From a virus: a stretch of 64,000 nt of DNA. The stretch is from IMG/VR virus record IMGVR_UViG_3300045988_052780, one strand, 5' to 3'. Positions within the stretch are counted from its first letter, which is position 1, and every line of letters starts with the position of its first letter. Below the pieces are notes generated by a model. It searched no databases and was not told the origin of the DNA. It was given only the letters and a program-made list of their open reading frames with translations. Made by a program: the position numbers and the translations under genes. Below, piece by piece: positions 6,629 to 63,419 of this stretch.

Positions 6629-7205
6629 TTACTTGTTTCTCAATTATATGTTTTACTTGTATATATGACACAGGAATATAATTGTTATTATCAACTCCTA
6701 CATCGTATTGAGTCGGGAATAAATATTTTAATCTATCAATATCAATTCCCGTACCATTTGGACCTGAATGCACATGCCCAAATAATTGCCATACAGTAGC
6801 CTCTGGTTTGCGGTATGTTCCGCCATAACACAAGAAAGGATAGTGATTCAAGTAAATACTACGATTCTCTATCCTTATTTGCATTTGTGGAACTACTGCC
6901 TCAAACTTATCCATGTAACCTTGACGTATGTTCTTGTGGTCGTGATTCCCGAGTATTAGGTATATTTTACCATTAAGTCGGGATAAAACCTTATTCCATA
7001 CATCACTGCCACCCAAAGCAAAATCTCCCAAATGGAAGACTGTATCATCGTCTGTGACCACATTATTCCAGTTCTCTACCAACATATCGTTCATATGATT
7101 AACATCTCTGAATGGACGCCTACACAGATTAATAATGTTAGCATGGTTCCAGTGGGTATCTGACGTAAAGAAAGTATGCTCCGGGTCAAATTCAAACTGC
7201 TTCAT
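6615..7205 (-). CDS. calcineurin-like metallophosphoesterase (second copy)
   Basis: Motifs [28 protein letters not shown]. Confidence 0.6.
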
Positions 7206-7534
7206 TTACCACAACAATATTTATACTTCTTACCACTGCCACATGGACACGTTTCATTCCTTCCAATCTTAGGAGCTTCACGTACATATGGAGTTCTACT
7301 TAGATATTTACTAATCATGTTTCTTAATTTAACCTCTTCCTCTGGAGATAGTTCCTTATCAAGGTCTAAGGCTGCTTTAGCTTCTTGCATTCTAAATGTG
7401 AATAAATATTTAACAAATAATATTAATCTACATATCCTATTAATCTGCATATCGAAGATTCTTTGATCAGCTCTGTGCTGTTCACGTTTAGTTCTTCTGA
7501 TATCAGTTCTAAACTTGTATACTCCCTGGATCAT
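7202..7534 (-). CDS. small SEC-C metal-binding motif protein (true start probably an internal Met)
   Basis: C-terminus [17 protein letters not shown] is the SecA-type SEC-C Zn-binding motif. The N-terminal third overlaps ThyX and is doubtful. Confidence 0.4.
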
Positions 7535-23810: not shown

Positions 23811-24443
23811 CTATTTATCCCAAAATTTATAAGTTATGTTTGTTAACTTGTACTCTCCATCCTCAACTATAACCTTATAAAGCCTTTGGTTGGTGTTTGG
23901 ATTATTAAGTGGTCCACATTCTTCAATGTAAGGGCCGAGCTTAACGTAATTAAAGTTCTTCAGATCAATTTCCTCTGCTAATGTAGCTCTACCACTATAC
24001 CACCCAATCTTTATGTTAAGTGGTACTGTCTCCTGCCATTGCATCTCAGTTTCAGCCGGAATTGTTACCTTAGGAAACTTTACCTCTTTATGAATAGTAA
24101 AGGAATCTACTATCTTAGTAGTAGTTAATGCCCTTACTAAACCAGCATAGTGATTAATGAGTTTAGGGTCATTATCGCCACCCATAAAACAGATAGCAGT
24201 AATACCTTTATTCTCATTAATGAGTTTCTCTATTCTAGTAATTGTTAGAGGTTCTCCAATATCCTCTGCCAAGTAAGAGCTATGACAGCCTGGACAATGG
24301 CAGGGACAATTGGATATATTAATGGCAAGAGTGGTTTCATCAGGAATTTCCCTAAATACTATGTCATATCCTACATATTTAAGCATGTGCGTAGAATCTT
24401 CTGCTAGCTTCTTCTTGTCTTGCTTGACTGAAGTTACTAACAC
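23811..24443 (-). CDS. nrdG: anaerobic ribonucleotide reductase activating protein (radical SAM)
   Basis: NISNCPCHCPGCHSSY gives a CxxxCxxC cluster in the same position as T4 NrdG GCPHRCKGCHN. Sits immediately downstream of the nrdD exons. Confidence 0.7.
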   Translation of the reverse strand: MLVTSVKQDKKKLAEDSTHMLKYVGYDIVFREIPDETTLAINISNCPCHCPGCHSSYLAEDIGEPLTITRIEKLINENKGITAICFMGGDNDPKLINHYAGLVRALTTTKIVDSFTIHKEVKFPKVTIPAETEMQWQETVPLNIKIGWYSGRATLAEEIDLKNFNYVKLGPYIEECGPLNNPNTNQRLYKVIVEDGEYKLTNITYKFWDK

Positions 24444-24651
24444 GTTTTAAATAACCGATAACTCTAGTAGCATAATCAATGTTCTTACTACCACACTTAG
24501 GACATTCTTTGAGATATCTTTTATCAATATGTCCACAATCATTACAAATAGTATTTGGAATATTAAATGTGAAATAGTTAGTACCATTGACAGCTGCAAC
24601 CTTTAATAGGTTACGATACTGTTCTTTGCTAAGATGTTCATCTAGATTCAT
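24379..24651 (-). CDS. nrdD: anaerobic (class III) ribonucleotide reductase NrdD, C-terminal exon (Zn ribbon and glycyl-radical motif)
   Basis: CNDCGH...CPKCGS Zn ribbon followed by the glycyl-radical motif RVIGYL and QEEASRR. The ORF is C-terminus only. Confidence 0.7.
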   Translation of the reverse strand: MNLDEHLSKEQYRNLLKVAAVNGTNYFTFNIPNTICNDCGHIDKRYLKECPKCGSKNIDYATRVIGYLKRVSNFSQARQEEASRRFYAHA

Positions 24652-25678
24652 GTGGAGGGCGCTACCCGTGTTTATCTAATGTTTCCATTAGCACTGACTA
24701 TATCTTAACGGAAGTACTTCCGCAATATCCATTTCAAGCAGCGTACCAATAGCTGCCTTACTCCTCCGATCCGAGGATAGTCGATACAGGATTATAATTA
24801 TCAATGTTTATCTCCTGACCATTAAGTAGCCAGGCAGATTTAACTTTACTGTAGATTGGAAGATGTTTATATGAATTAGCAATTAAACCTCTAAAGCTAT
24901 CTTTAGATTTACTTCTGCTACCATACTTCTCATATGTTTCTGTTAAGGTATGATTAGTATAATACTTACGTATCTCTAAGACTTCTTCGTCAGAGTATAT
25001 TGCATTACCATTCAAACTTCCTGGATTACTCTTTTGAGAACTATGATGTACTTTATTAGATTCAGTATAAACTTCCGGCATAACAGATTGCCAAGTAATT
25101 CCTTCCCAAATCTTCTGAAATGCTGAGTAGGAGATTCTATCCTTAAACATCTCCCAACATTCCTTACATCTCAAGTCTCCATAAGAGTAAATCTCTCGAA
25201 TTTGAATTACATCTTCCACTTTAAGTTTAGCTCTAGGGTTTCCGTCTAACTGGTTAGATTCACCTCCCCCAGTAATATTATATCCTTTATCAGGATTCCT
25301 GGAATCAAAGGTCTTTATATAGTACCTCTCTAATTCCCCAAGCTTCTTAAAGTCGTCAGTATTATCTATCTCTTCTATAGTAAAGTTCTCAAGACCGTAT
25401 TTACGCATAGACCTATATAAGTGTCTATCACACACTCTACTGTCTCTTATGTGACCTCTCCATCTTGCTTCTAGTGTAACTGTAGTTAAACCTATATACA
25501 CCTTGCCGTTAATACTGTTAGTAATTTTATAGATGATCATTATATTAATAATTTCTACAAATTTACTAATTTAAATGGAGATGTGCAACTCATACATCAT
25601 AATTAATTTCCCACGGGATTACCATACATCTAGTCTCACGACTCAAGCTTCAGGCTTCCCCGTTAGCATAGTTAATTA
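24652..25678 (-). mobile_element. group-I-like intervening sequence in nrdD carrying a GIY-YIG homing endonuclease ORF
   Basis: The GIY-YIG ORF is flanked by GC-rich, hairpin-rich non-coding stretches of 139 nt and 106 nt in an otherwise AT-rich genome, lying between two nrdD coding pieces. Exact splice junctions not determined. Confidence 0.5.
24758..25540 (-). CDS. GIY-YIG homing endonuclease
   Basis: N-terminal IYKITNSINGKVYIGLT...RWRGH is the GIY-YIG catalytic module. Confidence 0.8.
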   Translation of the reverse strand: MIIYKITNSINGKVYIGLTTVTLEARWRGHIRDSRVCDRHLYRSMRKYGLENFTIEEIDNTDDFKKLGELERYYIKTFDSRNPDKGYNITGGGESNQLDGNPRAKLKVEDVIQIREIYSYGDLRCKECWEMFKDRISYSAFQKIWEGITWQSVMPEVYTESNKVHHSSQKSNPGSLNGNAIYSDEEVLEIRKYYTNHTLTETYEKYGSRSKSKDSFRGLIANSYKHLPIYSKVKSAWLLNGQEINIDNYNPVSTILGSEE

Positions 25679-26488
25679 CTATACCCGTCTGGTTAAACGC
25701 AAAGATATAACAGGCGATTGTTCACCATCAAGATACTTGATATAATCTTTACCATGTAGTTTAAATTTATCAAGTATAGTCAAGGAAGTATCTTCTACAG
25801 CATAGAAGTAACTATTATAGCAATCTCTTGGTACAAAGTAACCTGCCTTCCTGTCCCACATAGCATGTTTAACTCCCAGGTTCTCCGCTGGGACAAACTC
25901 ACAGTTAAACATCAACTCCTTAGTTCTAGCTTTACGATTTTCATCGCTAATAGTCTTAAGGATAGATTGCATAAATTCTCTGTAAGTAGGATTGTCATTA
26001 ACTGGAATTCCTAAGAACTCAGCAGCTTCGATAACTCCATTAACACCTACAGTTAAATACTGTTTCTTCATATGAATGAATCCAGCAGAATAGACAGTTA
26101 GTAAACCATCATTTAAATAGTCTTTGAGTAATTCATTATATGCAGTTTGATATTTATGAACTTTCTGAACGTTTTCACGTAAATACTCAATCATATCGTA
26201 TCCGTTATTAACTGCATCTTGAACTAATCTATTAATATTTAAAGTCATTACAGATTTGCTACCAGTAGCAATACCACCAGCTCCAAGAGAATAACTAAAT
26301 TGATTATCAGTTACTTCATTGCGAAGTCTACAACAACTTGACAGACTATCTGCTGAATCAGACATATAAGTAAAGAATGAGTGTCCCTTACTATACATCT
26401 CTGCTGTAAAGTCTGCCCATTCTTTATCTACTACATCCTCTCCATCAGTAAGAAGTGCTACAGTTTCGACCATTCTGTTACACCTCAC
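25679..26488 (-). CDS. nrdD: NrdD central exon
   Basis: Segments LTVYSAGFIHMKKQYLTVGVNGVIEAAEFLG and NCEFVPAENLGVKHAMWDRK resemble conserved NrdD core blocks. No ATP-cone or Gly-radical, so it is an internal piece. The ORF start is probably inside the intron. Confidence 0.65.
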   Translation of the reverse strand: MRCNRMVETVALLTDGEDVVDKEWADFTAEMYSKGHSFFTYMSDSADSLSSCCRLRNEVTDNQFSYSLGAGGIATGSKSVMTLNINRLVQDAVNNGYDMIEYLRENVQKVHKYQTAYNELLKDYLNDGLLTVYSAGFIHMKKQYLTVGVNGVIEAAEFLGIPVNDNPTYREFMQSILKTISDENRKARTKELMFNCEFVPAENLGVKHAMWDRKAGYFVPRDCYNSYFYAVEDTSLTILDKFKLHGKDYIKYLDGEQSPVISLRLTRRV

Positions 26489-27224
26489 CCTCGGTAGGTG
26501 AGTGATTTATTAAGTATTCGTATTTCTTGTTCTCACTACTAACTATCTTGCCATAGATTTCTATTTCGTGTAATAGTCTATTCTTGATAGCCTCTTCTTC
26601 CGTGTCATACCATTCGATTAAGGATTCTCCATCCTTCTTTATATAGCATCTCCAGCATTTACCATCTCGTCTATTAGAGTGATAACTAACACCTACTACT
26701 TTACCGTAGTGTCTGTTAACTACATTTATTGCTTGAGATACTACTCTAAGATTCTCCATTCTATTGTCTAGTCTAATTCCATTAATATGGTCCACTACAG
26801 TCTTAGCATCGTAACCCTCTGTTTCAGTCAGAATCTTATGAATTAGCCGCGTCTTACCATCAGTTTTAGTTACTGCGTAACCTTCACTATTAATATAAAT
26901 CTTAAACTGTTGTAAGAACTCTTTCTTATCTAAATCGAATATTACTTCACCAGTGATTTCACCATGTACTCCTCTACATACACAGACATTATCTCTCCAC
27001 TCATTAGCATCCTTCTGGGTGAATTGAGATATCTCTCCATGTCTATACATTTGTAAATAGTGCTTTCTACAATAATACTGTCCATCTCCCTTAAACTTAC
27101 TTACTCTACCAGTGCCATTACCGACACTAGCTCCACATATACAGCAAATTCTTTCGTTAGTCTCCATATTTATAAAGTTGTTACTTGTTTCACTTAATGA
27201 GACAAAGATACAACTTATTCCCAA
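26478..27224 (-). CDS. HNH homing endonuclease
   Basis: VVDHINGIRLDNRMENLRVV is an HNH motif, and an N-terminal CCICG...CRKH Zn-binding region is present. The real start is probably METNERICC, about 19 codons in. Confidence 0.75.
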   Translation of the reverse strand: MGISCIFVSLSETSNNFINMETNERICCICGASVGNGTGRVSKFKGDGQYYCRKHYLQMYRHGEISQFTQKDANEWRDNVCVCRGVHGEITGEVIFDLDKKEFLQQFKIYINSEGYAVTKTDGKTRLIHKILTETEGYDAKTVVDHINGIRLDNRMENLRVVSQAINVVNRHYGKVVGVSYHSNRRDGKCWRCYIKKDGESLIEWYDTEEEAIKNRLLHEIEIYGKIVSSENKKYEYLINHSPTEGEV

Positions 27225-27368
27225 TAGAAACTAACTTTAATGGACATACTTAATAAACGGGAGAATACTTCAATTCTCCTCTATATGTTACCATATAGTT
27301 CCGACTATCGCATACCTTAATACATTATATTCACACATAACGTATTAAAGTCCTCTATATTTAGTCTG
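26489..27368 (-). mobile_element. group-I-like intervening sequence in nrdD carrying an HNH homing endonuclease ORF
   Basis: HNH ORF plus a 144 nt structured non-coding stretch (27225..27368) between NrdD N-terminal and central coding pieces. Junctions approximate. Confidence 0.5.
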
Positions 27369-28496
27369 TCAGGCTGCACACTTAACGTTGCTTGCCCCCT
27401 GTTGTCCTAATATTAGGAGTTCCAAGTCAATTAATAGAGGTTTTAATTCCCCATCGAAATTCCAAGGGAATGTAAGAATACACTTAGTGCGTTCATTATT
27501 AAACCAAGTCATAAACTTCTTCTGTAACCAGTTCAAAGAATCCCATATGGGCTTAGTTCCATCTGGGAATACAAACTCACCAAATAAACCTTCAAAGTAA
27601 TTCTTATCAAAATAACTGATATTCCAGAATACTGATTGGAAGTTACGAGCAGCTGCTGGTTGATTGATTGAATATACAATCTGTTGGAACTTCTGTTCAA
27701 TAGTCTTATCAATATTTCTATGTTTATCAACCATCTCTTCTGGACGTTTCCAATAATCATCACCCCATTCTTTACGAGCGAAGTAATCGAAATACATTAG
27801 GAACTCACCAGTAGCTACTGCTCCAGCGAATTGTGAGCTGATAGCAAATACCAGATTAACAAACATACCGCAGAAGGAGTCCAGATTCTTAGGCTTGGCA
27901 GACAAACCTCCAATTGGCTGTAGCCCTTCAAGTAGGAACGGATACATAGTGATAGCCACGCAGTAGGGCATAATTGATGTTTCATCATGCTTGTAAAGTT
28001 CATGAGATTCCAGTTGTCTAATATACTCCTTAGCTAAATCTTCACCATATAACTGCCTAATTTTATCTGTAAGGATTGCTCTATTAACTTTAATTACATC
28101 ACCCTTAAACAACTCTCCATTTAAAGTTACTATATTCTTCTCAGTAACATTGGCATTAGCATCATATTTACTACCTGTAGCAGCATTAGATGCTTTGGCA
28201 TAATCTTTAATAAACTGCTTCTTCCCAGCTAATGCTCTGAGTTCAGCTTGTTTATGTCGATACAAAATGAATGCTTTAGCGACATCATAGTAATCACAAG
28301 CCATCAAAGCCTTTTCAATTTGATCTTGAAGCTCTTCTACTGATACTATGTTGTTAATATACAATTCATCTTTAATATCATCCAAAATATCGGAATCAAT
28401 TGGTTCGTTAACAGCATTGAACGCCTTAGTAATAGCCGCGTCAATCTTATTAATATCGAAAGGTTCTACTCTCTTATTTCTTTTAATTACTAACAT
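27369..28496 (-). CDS. nrdD: NrdD N-terminal exon (ATP-cone and first half of catalytic domain)
   Basis: Starts MLVIKRNKRVEPFDINKIDAAITKAF, an ATP-cone. The 3' end of the ORF reads through into the intervening sequence. Confidence 0.7.
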   Translation of the reverse strand: MLVIKRNKRVEPFDINKIDAAITKAFNAVNEPIDSDILDDIKDELYINNIVSVEELQDQIEKALMACDYYDVAKAFILYRHKQAELRALAGKKQFIKDYAKASNAATGSKYDANANVTEKNIVTLNGELFKGDVIKVNRAILTDKIRQLYGEDLAKEYIRQLESHELYKHDETSIMPYCVAITMYPFLLEGLQPIGGLSAKPKNLDSFCGMFVNLVFAISSQFAGAVATGEFLMYFDYFARKEWGDDYWKRPEEMVDKHRNIDKTIEQKFQQIVYSINQPAAARNFQSVFWNISYFDKNYFEGLFGEFVFPDGTKPIWDSLNWLQKKFMTWFNNERTKCILTFPWNFDGELKPLLIDLELLILGQQGASNVKCAA

Positions 28497-28501
28497 TCAA
28501 T

Positions 28502-29281
28502 TTAGAAGTTTAATATGTTTCTTAGTAATAGAGTCTTCTCTGCTCTATTCATCAAATCTTTGCCCTTGTCATTACTAATTAACTGAGTAAATGCATTATA
28601 CACAGTAAACATATCCACCTCATTACCCTCTCCTATATAATAGCTAGAATCAGGGTCTTCAAACATAGAACCATAAGCCTTAACAACAAGGTCTGTTCCT
28701 ATCTTTACGTCTCCATACCCACCATTATAGGTCATAGATATAGCGTTTCTAACCCATCTACCTAGATTAGAGTCTATATTACTTGGAGTTCCTTCCCATG
28801 TAGTATTATGTAAGGTGTCCAACATCAATTTAATATCACTGGTTTGTGATAAAAGGTGTTCAACAGCTTTATAATTGATGGGCTTCTCAGACTCTAAGTT
28901 CTGAACTTGCAAGAACTCTGGGTCAAAGACACATAAGTTTGTACATGCTCTATTAAGAGCGCCTCTATAAATCTTAGCTACTGGTTTACGGACATCTAAT
29001 CCATATACCATACCAATAACTTCATCGTGATTATCTATTCTGCAATTCTCTGGCATTACAGCTTGAATAAGTACACGATTATAAGTGATATCATCTGCAT
29101 TAACCTCTCCATCTGCTGTTCTAGTAACTTGCTTAGGAAGTTCTGCTTCCACTATAAAGTTACTAGTAAACTTATACATTCTTTCTAGAAAGGGTTCTAC
29201 ATAAGCAGCCGTAGGGAAGTAATTACGCTTCCCTATTCTGGTTGCTTTACCATTTAACAGTTGATCAATCGTCAGTTGCAT
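28502..29281 (-). CDS. hypothetical protein
   Basis: 259 aa ORF. Confidence 0.4.
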   Translation of the reverse strand: MQLTIDQLLNGKATRIGKRNYFPTAAYVEPFLERMYKFTSNFIVEAELPKQVTRTADGEVNADDITYNRVLIQAVMPENCRIDNHDEVIGMVYGLDVRKPVAKIYRGALNRACTNLCVFDPEFLQVQNLESEKPINYKAVEHLLSQTSDIKLMLDTLHNTTWEGTPSNIDSNLGRWVRNAISMTYNGGYGDVKIGTDLVVKAYGSMFEDPDSSYYIGEGNEVDMFTVYNAFTQLISNDKGKDLMNRAEKTLLLRNILNF

Positions 29282-44753: not shown

Positions 44754-45395
44754 TTATTTCCTACCTAAACCATTATAGAAGTCAAGTATGGCGTTCTCTT
44801 TACGAAGCCATGTGGCTTGTTCTCTAGCCATATCAAGAATAGTTCTACTAATGGACTCTTCTTCTACCTGTTCTTTAACTAGCATACCAGTATCTTCATC
44901 ATCTCCGTTTAGCCACTGGAATGTAGCCCAATCTCCTTCTTTCTGAGCCTGGTCTACAATCTTGTTGATACTCATAGTAGTCTCAATTTCCCTGTCTACC
45001 GTAGCAGCAAAAGGCATGATTCTATCTACGATATCTACTTTAATAGGAGGAACTGGGGGATACTGGAACAAGGCATCATTCTCGGTTAGATATTCAAATA
45101 TCCACGAATGATGTAGGTACTCTTCTTTAGCTCTACCTCTCCAGTAGATGCCAAGTTTAGGAAGTCCTTCTACTTCAAAGTAATTAGCGAATGTCATATA
45201 CAAAGCATGATTAGCTAGTTCAGCAGACATCTGCTTTACTAACATTTCAATCATTACCGACGATAAAGGACATTTACGTCTTGTAGTATCAATAACTCTC
45301 TCAGTATATTTCATAGTAGGTTCTGCACCCACTGTTTGAACTCCATCACTTGTTACTTCTTGTATTGGATTTCCGTCTTTGTCTAGCTTTCTCAC
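44754..45395 (-). CDS. ferritin-like di-iron protein (putative)
   Basis: ELANHALYMTFANYF...RGRAKEEYLHHSWIFEYL resembles ferritin helix A/B with an ExxH ligand pair. 213 aa. Confidence 0.4.
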   Translation of the reverse strand: MRKLDKDGNPIQEVTSDGVQTVGAEPTMKYTERVIDTTRRKCPLSSVMIEMLVKQMSAELANHALYMTFANYFEVEGLPKLGIYWRGRAKEEYLHHSWIFEYLTENDALFQYPPVPPIKVDIVDRIMPFAATVDREIETTMSINKIVDQAQKEGDWATFQWLNGDDEDTGMLVKEQVEEESISRTILDMAREQATWLRKENAILDFYNGLGRK

Positions 45396-61447: not shown

Positions 61448-62494
61448 CTATGACTCCCTTACATACTCTTCATAAATATACAGTTCAAAGTTAGGTCTTA
61501 TAAACATATCTTTGTCTGTAGCTTCGTCCCAATGAGTAACTATAACCTTCTTGCGAACGTTATGGCTAAACATAGAATCAATATTGAGACTATGCCTAAA
61601 CAAAACTGGATCAAACTCTATAGCCCGGAAAGATTTCTGAAAGTCGTTAAATTGGTTGTTGGGGTCTACAACAGGTCTAACTGGCTTATCAGAAGGAAAC
61701 GGACCGTTACCATGACGCGTTATGTATGGTCTAGTAACGTAATTAACCGTAACGGTGTCATTACATCCAATTTGTTTTAGTATTCGATGAGCATTCTGTG
61801 ATGTTGTATTAGATGGAGTGCAATGGGGCATTATTCCGAATCTTTGGTCTAATAATATACCTTGAGAACCTTCAAAGATAAGATTGTCGTAATCTTCCCA
61901 TATAGCTTCTAAGGTACTTACTTGGACAGTGTTGAAATATGCATTCACAGTTCTGCACCAATTATCCAAGTCAATTGATGGATATACACTATTCATGTGA
62001 TAATAGTTGTCTGCTATTGCATTAACTTTCTCCCTAAGAATATGTATATTCAAGCAATCTATAACCATAAGATTATACCCCGACTTCACTCGGTCTAAAC
62101 ACGTTTTAAAACCAGTCCCTACAGTACCATGACGTAGATTTACTACGTCACTTACTTGGGAATAGACGTCGAATGGTACTATGACTTGACATAATGGATT
62201 ATAAATAATTTTAGGAGTAATACCTAATTTCTTTAAATCCATTGCTTCAAGTGTAGAGGTTACTGGGTCTACAGTACAGTATTCAGACCAATATGTAGGC
62301 ACTCCTAGCAAGGTTCCACTTCCAAAGTTACTAAATGTGTGCATAAGGTCTCCGTATTTAACAGTATGGCCAACTTGATGTCCACCACTAAACCTTATTA
62401 CAAGTGAGTTCTCTGGATTCTTAGCACATATATTATGTACCGTCTGTCCCTTACCTTCATCGCCCATAAATGAGCCTAACACTATACTAATCAT
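61448..62494 (-). CDS. adenylosuccinate synthetase homolog, short form (PurA/PurZ-like); start moved to Met37 of the track ORF
   Basis: GSFMGDEGKGQTV P-loop and FSGGHQVGHTV match the PurA GDEGKGK / GGxNAGHT blocks. At about 348 aa it lacks roughly 80 aa relative to bacterial PurA. ATG at 62494..62492 leaves a 4 nt gap after the upstream vWA gene instead of a 104 nt overlap. Confidence 0.6.
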   Translation of the reverse strand: MISIVLGSFMGDEGKGQTVHNICAKNPENSLVIRFSGGHQVGHTVKYGDLMHTFSNFGSGTLLGVPTYWSEYCTVDPVTSTLEAMDLKKLGITPKIIYNPLCQVIVPFDVYSQVSDVVNLRHGTVGTGFKTCLDRVKSGYNLMVIDCLNIHILREKVNAIADNYYHMNSVYPSIDLDNWCRTVNAYFNTVQVSTLEAIWEDYDNLIFEGSQGILLDQRFGIMPHCTPSNTTSQNAHRILKQIGCNDTVTVNYVTRPYITRHGNGPFPSDKPVRPVVDPNNQFNDFQKSFRAIEFDPVLFRHSLNIDSMFSHNVRKKVIVTHWDEATDKDMFIRPNFELYIYEEYVRES

Positions 62495-62498
62495 GATT

Positions 62499-63419
62499 TT
62501 AATAGAAATTTTGTTTGTCTTCGGTAGTTGTACTACTAGAAGCATCACTAGGAGTTTCTGCATACACAGGCTCCTCGTAATTGTCTTTAATTGCTTTAGC
62601 AATTACTTTATCCACTTCATCAGATTTGCACATTAGTACATTCTGTCCAAGTAGATTCTTCCAAGATTCAGCCACCCTTGTGCCATAACTGGCATTAGTA
62701 ATGTGAATGTGGAATACATGGTACTGCTCTTGTGCTTTCAGAATTGCTTCATTAGCACTAATAGAACCAGCACCTTTTTGATACCCTAGAATTTCAGTCA
62801 AACTGTTACCTGGGATTCCTTGTAGATTAGGTTCATCACCAATAGTAAACAAGAATCCTTTAGTGTGTCTTTTGAACCAAGAATCGGTTTCAGTGTGATA
62901 TCCTGCAACTATGTGAGCTAATAAATAGCTCTCACCTGCATTACCACCACCTCCACCTTCTATTACTAAGGACTCTAATGAATTTAGAATCTTCTCAGTA
63001 TCAGATTCAAACTGTCCAACCTGAATAGGATATCTATCGAATTCGTGGTCTCCAACTGCCATAAACAACAATTGAGGATCACGTACTCCCATTTGCATGA
63101 CAGAATCCATAATCTTAGGTAAATGGTTCTTAATCATTTCATAAGGAGTATTCATCATTGAACCAGTAACATCTAGTGCAATGATTATCGGAGTAGAGTA
63201 TGGATGTTCTTGAGAGTCACGACACTCACGAACTCCAACATTGACCATTTCAGCTTTAACTTGAGTATTAAAGCTACGTGCATTTACATTAAATGACGCT
63301 GCTGTATTACTAGCATTTACTGAAATGTTCTTAAAGAGCTGGTCACGCGATGCTTTAGCATATCCTCTATCATCGGATAAAGTTCTATAAGCAATACTAC
63401 TGTAAACACCACTTCCCAT
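62499..63419 (-). CDS. von Willebrand factor A (vWA) domain protein
   Basis: MIDAS motif IIIALDVTGSM (DxSxS). Paired with the AAA+ ATPase two genes upstream, as in MoxR/CobST-type systems. Confidence 0.6.
   Translation of the reverse strand: MGSGVYSSIAYRTLSDDRGYAKASRDQLFKNISVNASNTAASFNVNARSFNTQVKAEMVNVGVRECRDSQEHPYSTPIIIALDVTGSMMNTPYEMIKNHLPKIMDSVMQMGVRDPQLLFMAVGDHEFDRYPIQVGQFESDTEKILNSLESLVIEGGGGGNAGESYLLAHIVAGYHTETDSWFKRHTKGFLFTIGDEPNLQGIPGNSLTEILGYQKGAGSISANEAILKAQEQYHVFHIHITNASYGTRVAESWKNLLGQNVLMCKSDEVDKVIAKAIKDNYEEPVYAETPSDASSSTTTEDKQNFY

Follow-up and report, generated by a model that had tools for sequence, protein, structure and literature searches.

An apparently crAss-like phage nrdD gene in three exons, very probably parted by two mobile group I introns

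The virus record IMGVR_UViG_3300045988_052780 of IMG/VR raises the question of whether its anaerobic ribonucleotide reductase gene, nrdD, which lies in pieces among endonuclease open reading frames (ORFs), is a broken gene or a single one interrupted by removable elements. The stretch analysed, referred to here as the window, comprises 64,000 nucleotides (nt), and an earlier note made from its letters had described nrdD as three pieces separated by two group-I-like insertions, each bearing an endonuclease. The five ORFs concerned (24379..24651, 24758..25540, 25679..26488, 26478..27224 and 27369..28496) are all present on the minus strand, and the description was borne out by the boundaries of the insertions, by the ORF recovered on joining the exons and by covarying RNA folds. 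We conclude that nrdD, on the minus strand, very probably consists of three exons parted by two mobile group I introns. To judge by its sequence it is one intact gene, with exact splice junctions mapped from intron-less relatives and with splicing itself predicted from them.

In the phage collection there is a single close relative, MT835470.1, a 117-kb unannotated phage scaffold from human faeces, and this was used as the reference for placing the boundaries. Three collinear blocks of it span 51% of the region, in such a way that its uninterrupted nrdD aligns to window positions 28560..27465, goes directly on at 26470..25742 and starts again from 24666. The first junction abuts exactly, and the second leaves 18 unaligned nt, of equal length on both sides. 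The exons are as follows (aa, amino acids).

27465..28496, minus strand: nrdD exon 1, aa 1-344, with the ATP-cone and the N-terminal half, ending ...ILTFP; collinear with MT835470.1 up to 27465, and supported by Pfam
25724..26470, minus strand: nrdD exon 2, aa 345-593, VETVALL...KYLDG, holding the SSCCRLRN catalytic loop
24379..24666, minus strand: nrdD exon 3, aa 594-688, GSALHMNLDE..., with the Zn ribbon CNDCG...CPKCG and the glycyl-radical motif RVIGYL

When joined, they form a seamless ORF of 2067 nt and 688 aa that aligns end to end with the NrdD of MT835470.1 at 93% identity. The junctions in the protein are ILTFP/VETVALL and KYLDG/GSALHMNLDE (a slash marks a junction throughout), and those expected in the joined nucleotide sequence are ...ACATTCCCT/GTCGAAACT... 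and ...CTTGATGGT/GGTAGCGCC... The concatenation of exons suggested in the earlier note as a check therefore restores a continuous 688-aa NrdD, with a layout identical to that of the intron-less relatives. In Pfam, the joined product matches NRDD (PF13597) with an E value of 4.8e-105 over profile positions 6-560 of 562, and the ATP-cone with an E value of 2.4e-22. Its NRDD domain, Zn ribbon and glycyl-radical motif, together with the adjacent probable activase described below, make it a class III ribonucleotide reductase NrdD. The limits of the pieces had to be corrected, as the ends of the ORFs had been taken for them: 96 nt at the end of the "N-terminal" ORF (27369..27464) and 45 nt at the end of the "middle" ORF (25679..25723) belong to the introns, and exon 3 begins 15 nt upstream of the ATG assigned to the C-terminal piece.

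The same boundaries bear on the possibility that the insertions are inteins, removing themselves from a single polyprotein. NrdD inteins do exist, and Clostridium phage c-st has an in-frame insertion near the SSCC/RL loop within a single coding sequence of 978 aa. In the window, by contrast, there is a +1 shift of frame from exon 1 to exon 2 and again from exon 2 to exon 3, and stop codons follow both 5' junctions (27369-27371 and 25679-25681); these frame shifts and in-frame stops exclude protein splicing. Moreover, no Hint or intein domain appeared in the Pfam scan, and covarying RNA folds are present, so that the probability left to inteins is negligible.

The first insertion (intron 1, at site A) is absent at exactly the same point in intron-less homologues, and the same intron is found at the same site in 9 related contigs. 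Its elements are listed below, with helices (P) and joining segments (J) named as in group I introns.

26471..27464, minus strand: intron 1 (site A), predicted group I, 994 nt, between codons 344 and 345, starting TGGAATTTCG and ending CAGAATG
27260..27464, minus strand: catalytic core of intron 1, contiguous and upstream of the ORF, from RNAalifold on 12 site-A and site-B introns plus pair counts
27459-27453, minus strand: P10 strand TTTCGAT, followed by the guide sequence GGGGAAT at 27452-27446
27440-27435, minus strand: P3, paired with 27357-27352; P4, P5 and P6 at 27428-27371
27368-27362, minus strand: P7, paired with 27307-27302; P8 at 27351-27314, P9 at 27298-27281 and P9.1 at 27279-27260
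26478..27167, minus strand: ORF of the predicted HNH homing endonuclease in intron 1, counted from the ATG at 27167 (229 aa), downstream of P9.1
26471..26502, minus strand: 3' element of intron 1, a hairpin of CTCACCT with GGGTGAG in the last HNH codons, then the conserved tail GTGTAACAGAATG with its terminal G

The fold was examined in an alignment of 12 distinct cores from site A and from a further site, B, described below. RNAalifold gave P1, P3, P4, P5, P6, P8, P9 and P9.1, and the P7 pseudoknot was added before counting. All 624 cells pair across the 52 pairs, 17 of which show compensatory changes; in controls with the partners slid by 1-3 columns, pairing was 36-44%, with at most one compensatory pair. 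P1 can be read directly, as the exon end ATTCCCT pairs with GGGGAAT and leaves a U.G at the splice site; this U.G is invariant in the 12 sequences, and three pairs of the helix change in a compensatory manner between sites A and B. P10 is formed by TTTCGA(T) with the first bases of exon 2, (G)TCGAAA. In P7, C(A)GACUA pairs with UAGUCG around a bulged base, and its outer pair changes from C-G to A-U between the two sites. The core is compact and lies wholly upstream of the HNH ORF, and its P7'-P9 module is similar to that of Staphylococcus phage introns recognised by Rfam. As it has neither P7.1/P7.2 nor P2, intron 1 does not belong to subgroup IA2. At the far end of the intron, the 3' hairpin is retained through two compensatory changes in the variant of contig L072, and the site-B intron has an analogous hairpin and tail.

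The ORF of intron 1 ends 7 nt before the 3' splice site and most likely starts at the ATG at 27167, instead of at the TTG at 27224 from which it had been called. Its product matches HNH_3 (PF13392) with an E value of 2.8e-9 and 36.9 bits, against a curated cut-off of 24.8, and is 91-95% identical to the products of other site-A introns and 38% identical to that of the site-B intron. By its domain and its intronic location, it is a predicted HNH homing endonuclease.

The second insertion (intron 2, at site C) is likewise missing at exactly the same point in intron-less homologues, and 10 related contigs have the same intron in that place. Its core, which the ORF splits, was found by comparison with the td intron of phage T4 and with a related intron of Enterococcus phage EF1.

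24667..25723, minus strand: intron 2 (site C), predicted group I, td-like, 1057 nt, between codons 593 and 594, starting GAACAATCG and ending AAACACG
25599..25723, minus strand: 5' half of intron 2, with P1 (exon GGT plus GA, paired with TCGCC at 25717-25713) and the P3 5' strand ATATC at 25708-25704
25699-25686, minus strand: hairpin A, followed by hairpin B at 25685-25665; both covary in the 30-sequence family alignment
25662-25658, minus strand: P4 strand CGGGG, paired with CCCGT at 25617-25613; P5 and the P5a hairpin at 25643-25632; P6 5' strand at 25605-25599
24667..24801, minus strand: 3' half of intron 2, with the P6 3' strand, J6/7 plus P7 (CGACTA) at 24790-24778, P7.1 at 24777-24762 and P7.2 at 24757-24737
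24730-24723, minus strand: P3 3' strand; P8 at 24722-24709 (by eye only); J8/7 plus P7' (TTAAGATATAGTCAG) at 24708-24694
24691-24676, minus strand: P9 with a GAAA loop, then a tail ending in G at 24675-24667
24758..25540, minus strand: ORF of the predicted GIY-YIG homing endonuclease in intron 2, looped out of P6 (260 aa)

P1 of intron 2 consists of GGU/GA with UCGCC, with the U.G at the splice site, and the EF1 relative has GGGU/GA with UCGCCC. A pattern search of IMG/VR for P4-P5-P4' yielded a family of at least 98 stretches (L090-L187), some of them ORF-less, to which the EF1 intron also belongs. When 30 distinct 3' halves were submitted to RNAalifold, P7, P7.1, P7.2 and P9 were predicted unaided; these helices are 97.6% paired, with compensatory changes in 17 of 24 pairs, and slid controls reached 29-42%. 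As the pair beside the P7 bulge, family members have U-A, A-U or G-C. P3 is formed by ATATC (25708-25704) with GATAT (within 24730-24723), and across the family the cognate strands show a mean complementary run of 5.41, compared to 4.48 +/- 0.18 when permuted (maximum 5.13 in 1000 permutations). P5a and both hairpins between P3 and P4 covary in the 30-sequence family alignment, with AGTC and GACT of P5a replaced by AGTT and AACT in relatives, and P4/P5/P4' resemble those of T4 td. The layout of the family is peculiar, as there is no P2, the P3 5' strand stands right after P1, and two conserved hairpins (window 25665-25699) precede J3/4-P4; no description of this hairpin arrangement was found in a literature search. 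Set against the criteria of subgroup IA2, P7.1 and P7.2 are present and covary, but P2 is missing and the two hairpins after P3 are extra.

Three other pairings were considered and discarded. The sequence GAGACTAGA at 25637-25629 was a candidate for the P7 5' strand and proved to be the 3' half of the covarying P5a hairpin. A long pairing of CTGTTATATCTT with AAGATATAGTCAG, obtained by single-sequence folding, is a side effect of the GATAT common to P3 and J8/7. AGCTA with TAGTC, as another version of P7, gave way to the P7.2 hairpin, which covaries.

The ORF of intron 2 matches GIY-YIG (PF01541) with an E value of 5.6e-9 and 36.6 bits, against a cut-off of 22.6, and Pfam thereby agrees with the endonuclease family that the earlier note had named for each of the two ORFs. 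Its product is 34% identical to the N-terminal domain of I-TevI over 118 aa, and no match to I-TevII was detectable. It is thus a predicted GIY-YIG homing endonuclease of the I-TevI type, with an N-terminal catalytic domain, encoded inside a mobile intron. The last 14 or so codons (24758-24801) also encode the P6 3' strand, J6/7, the P7 5' strand and P7.1, with the stop codon between P7.1 and P7.2. Because of this overlap, a ribosome that reaches the end of the endonuclease reading frame would be expected to unwind the ribozyme core of the RNA it is translating.

Taken together, these data support that both insertions behave as group I introns carrying homing endonucleases, as far as can be read from their sequences. 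Both are preceded by a U that is paired to G in P1, their last base is G (...CAGAAUG and ...AAACACG), and both present the P3/P7 pseudoknot, the bulged P7, P8 and J8/7 that define a group I core. The P4-P6 helices can be formed in every aligned sequence, and they are also matched by the Rfam group I model, RF00028, in a relative of intron 2 that has no ORF. No further copies of either intron or endonuclease were found elsewhere in the window.

The same features weigh on a different possibility, in which free-standing endonuclease genes would have split nrdD and the three fragments would assemble as proteins without RNA splicing. Such "genes in pieces" are known from the nrdA gene of Aeromonas phage Aeh1 (PMC3653736), and the three pieces of the window do appear as separate ORFs. 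However, exon 2 has no sensible start of its own, the listed GTG being inside the intron, and translation of exon 3 from its ATG would drop five conserved residues. A P1 with U.G, a terminal G and a complete covarying core are found at both junctions, and the insertions are cleanly missing, to the base, in relatives. We therefore consider independent fragments highly improbable.

Several observations count against two group I introns that are removed by splicing. RF00028 gave no match in the window, either at the gathering score or at E<=10, so that the Infernal search proposed in the earlier note came out negative. P4 and P6 of intron 1 are invariant in the alignment, as are P4 and P5 of intron 2, partly from the way in which the sequences were selected; these helices are compatible with the fold and unconfirmed by covariation. 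P10 of intron 2 has at most 3 bp, and the two hairpins between P3 and P4 make its layout atypical. Finally, in the Jug gut phages, of 76 predicted introns only 37 had support for splicing, which was lacking at one nrdD junction (PMC12880540).

The silence of Rfam was calibrated with known introns. RF00028 gives 105 bits on the T4 nrdD intron, used as a control, and 69-106 bits on Staphylococcus phage introns. The ORF-less relative of intron 2 reaches 36.5 bits with it, short of the cut-off of 50 (E value in this search, 6e-8), and in that alignment P4, P5, P6, P7, J8/7 and P9 are matched and P3 and P8 are not. As ORF-less relatives of intron 2 also score below the threshold, we do not take the lack of a match for the lack of a core; relied upon by itself, the Rfam check would have led to a wrong dismissal of the group I claim, since the reach of RF00028 is limited and the core is present. 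A covariance model built from the 3' halves of the intron 2 family (R1), with the introns of T4 and of Prevotella megaphage Lak-B5 outside the training set, gave 131.7 bits on intron 2, 42.9 on T4 nrdD, 37.2 on td and 25.5 on nrdB, and also matched two introns in the nrdD of Lak-B5.

Could one or both introns be decayed relics that no longer splice, with nrdD being a pseudogene? The silence of Rfam, the damaged endonuclease ORFs of relatives L080, L084 and L083, and the Jug nrdD junction without evidence of splicing (PMC12880540) would fit with this. On the other hand, the window copies retain all the base pairs of the models, and both endonuclease ORFs have their full length; the exons, free of frameshifts and stops, encode a protein 93% identical to that of intron-less relatives; and the non-coding core segments of intron 2 are identical to those of the independent contig L071. 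Decay of this kind is therefore very unlikely, and we keep to two introns within an intact gene.

The distribution of the introns was studied in 79 related loci or contigs (cited by their L numbers), which were obtained by scanning IMG/VR with the spliced NrdD and are the basis of the counts of presence and absence. Of these, 54 are intron-less. Insertions in the 79 contigs fall at four sites of the joined gene: A (nt 1032/1033), A' (two bases downstream of A), B (nt 1614/1615) and C (nt 1779/1780). They occur singly or in the combinations A+C, A+B, A'+B, A'+C and B+C, the window being A+C. In every intron-bearing allele, the exon flank fits the P1 of its intron, with CCT/ at A, GTGCCT/ at B and GATGGT/GGT at C, and all have U at position -1; most empty alleles have other flanks, such as CCA/ or GACGGA/GGT. 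This linkage is the pattern expected of co-conversion during homing, or of a requirement for U at -1. Two contigs, L017 and L072, carry the intron-type flank of site C (TATCTTGATGGT/GGTTCTGC) and no intron, and the NrdD of L072 is 99.7% identical to that of the window; their empty site C could reflect a precise intron loss or a homing site that is unoccupied.

The site-B intron (FVP/AEN) is found in nine contigs (L043-L047, L049, L069, L080 and L083). Its core and its HNH ORF are homologous to those of intron 1, and its guide sequence differs. The homologous cores and the 38% identity between the HNH proteins suggest that a single element reached another site, where its guide sequence is changed. 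The position of site B is also interrupted in Desulfovibrio phage 7757 (L005), a likeness by position only. The A' intron (L071 6035-6890, and L083) is a different one, of 856 nt, with another HNH ORF of 191 aa. It is 71% identical over 710 nt to the intron at the same position in the nrdD of Lak-B5 (L006, around 6711-7518), and in its 3' core it shares 80% identity with the T4 nrdB intron over 107 nt. In some alleles the endonuclease ORF is altered and the core is kept, with the ATG start changed to GTG in L080 (site A) and the ORF shortened in L084 (site A) and L083 (site B), a state consistent with the decay cycle that homing endonuclease genes usually go through.

Related introns appear at the same nrdD sites in crAss-like phages and in Lak megaphages. 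A broader idea is that the intron 2 family is a large group I subclass beyond Rfam, and that the nrdD of phages infecting anaerobes is a shared landing pad with at least seven sites; we regard it as speculative and rather doubtful. A hot spot of insertion in other phages is the SSCC/RLRN loop (window aa 391/392, around 26332), which is empty in the window; among L003-L007 it is interrupted in Lak-C1, Lak-B5, MT835492 and Desulfovibrio phage 7757, and in c-st it holds the in-frame intein.

From these features, a pathway can be proposed in which nrdD would be transcribed as a single pre-mRNA of around 4.1 kb, with each intron folding into a ribozyme. Free guanosine would attack the 5' splice site just after the U of the P1 U.G, and the released exon end would then attack the 3' splice site, just after the terminal G of the intron, in such a way that ...ILTFP/VETV... 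and ...YLDG/GSAL... would be joined into the 688-aa class III reductase. Production of the enzyme would require the removal of both introns. Splicing of a multi-intron nrdD has been shown in metatranscriptomes for the Jug gut phages (PMC12880540). As for mobility, each endonuclease would cut or nick the intron-less nrdD of co-infecting relatives near its own insertion site, and repair would copy the intron together with some of the flanking exon sequence (homing).

Downstream of nrdD lies a further gene of interest.

23811..24386, minus strand: probable nrdG (activase), directly downstream of nrdD, with the cluster motif CPCHCPGC (CxxxCxxC)

Its Pfam match to Fer4_12 is weak (E 0.0011, under the cut-off). 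The likely ATG of nrdG, a start chosen by inference, overlaps the stop codon of nrdD (ATGCTTAA, window 24379-24386), an overlap that suggests translational coupling. The longest ORF call for nrdG, from a GTG at 24443, would overlap nrdD by 65 nt.

One further detail of the earlier note concerns base composition, as the three non-coding stretches beside the endonuclease ORFs had been called locally GC-rich. This holds for 24652..24757 (GC 0.45) and fails for the other two (0.31 and 0.33, with 0.356 for the window).

In order to know how these introns relate to those already described, we compared them with T4 and with other phages. The T4 nrdD (sunY) intron, which encodes I-TevII, lies in the same host gene as both window introns and resembles intron 1 only in its general layout, that is, a contiguous core followed by the ORF, with the 3' splice site far downstream. 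As in intron 1, P2 is absent from the sunY intron. The endonuclease of the T4 nrdD intron belongs to the GIY-YIG family, whereas that of intron 1 is HNH, and the T4 core has P7.1/P7.2 and scores 105 bits with Rfam, whereas intron 1 has neither helix and no Rfam match. The insertion sites differ as well: identity with the T4 site was rejected, since that one lies at around QAYE/YEVN (window aa 272-276, approximately) and those of the window at 344/345 and 593/594. The ORF of the T4 nrdD intron had been described as often defunct; the defective endonuclease of T4 is in fact I-TevIII of nrdB, and no such defect is noted for I-TevII in the T4 record.

Intron 2 is closer to the T4 td intron (I-TevI, subgroup IA2). 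Both share the P4/P5/P4' motifs, an ORF looped out of P6, P7.1/P7.2, the J8/7-P7' motif AAGATATAGTC and a P9 with a GNRA loop. In contrast with td, intron 2 lies in another host gene, has no P2 and has two hairpins between the P3 5' strand and P4, and its ORF ends inside P7.1, whereas that of td ends just before P7.

Among other phages, Staphylococcus phage Twort carries two group I introns in nrdE, one with an HNH endonuclease, Brochothrix phage A9 has three introns and an intein in the same gene, and bnrdE/bnrdF of SPbeta are also intron-bearing (PMC3653736, PMC3984707). These are cases of phage genes for the large subunit of a ribonucleotide reductase with several self-splicing introns at conserved residues, some with endonucleases, as is predicted for the window; they differ in being class Ib genes of phages of Gram-positive hosts, whereas the nrdD of the window is of class III and belongs to an apparently crAss-like phage of the gut, with other introns and other sites. 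In a survey of phage ribonucleotide reductase genes, nrdD was the one most often split (PMC3653736). The same habitat and a similar kind of phage are found with the Zeta crAss-like genomes, with up to 14 introns and three inteins (PMC7886860), and with the Jug jumbo gut phages, where 95 of 104 genomes have a split nrdD, in as many as four fragments, and RNA reads demonstrate splicing (PMC12880540). The accounts of these two groups do not describe the nrdD introns, sites and folds reported here (PMC7886860, PMC12880540).

The phage of the window looks crAss-like by its sequence, and would belong to the Zeta group of these phages. Its PolA shares 40-47% identity with those of crAss-like phages, and the genes of the window correspond to the replication module of these phages. 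The window constitutes a replication and nucleotide-metabolism block encoding PolA, DnaB, primase, SNF2 and SF1 helicases, ligase and PNKP, along with a CCA-adding enzyme, Thy1, dUTPase, a PD-(D/E)XK nuclease and a metallophosphatase. There are seven tRNAs (two Arg, two Leu, two Thr and one Gln) and no suppressor, and related contigs measure 94-190 kb and larger. All the large ORFs and all seven tRNAs of window 1-64000 are on the minus strand. Auxiliary genes are also present, encoding a NAPRTase (1585-2763), a ferritin-like protein (44754-45395) and an adenylosuccinate synthetase (61448-62602).

Phage genes with several introns, including nrdD in four pieces, are already known in crAss-like, Jug, Twort and other phages, and what is known of group I introns, homing endonucleases and ribonucleotide reductases is unchanged by this locus. 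Its most unusual aspects are the layout of the intron 2 family, which escapes Rfam recognition, and the number of insertion sites common to unrelated phages, neither of them established as new. For annotation, the result is one intact nrdD with exact splice junctions in place of three fragments, and two intron families that are frequent in gut viromes go unrecognised by the single group I model of Rfam. With four sites, many combinations and exon flanks linked to the introns, the nrdD of these phages provides a natural data set on homing in uncultured gut phages.

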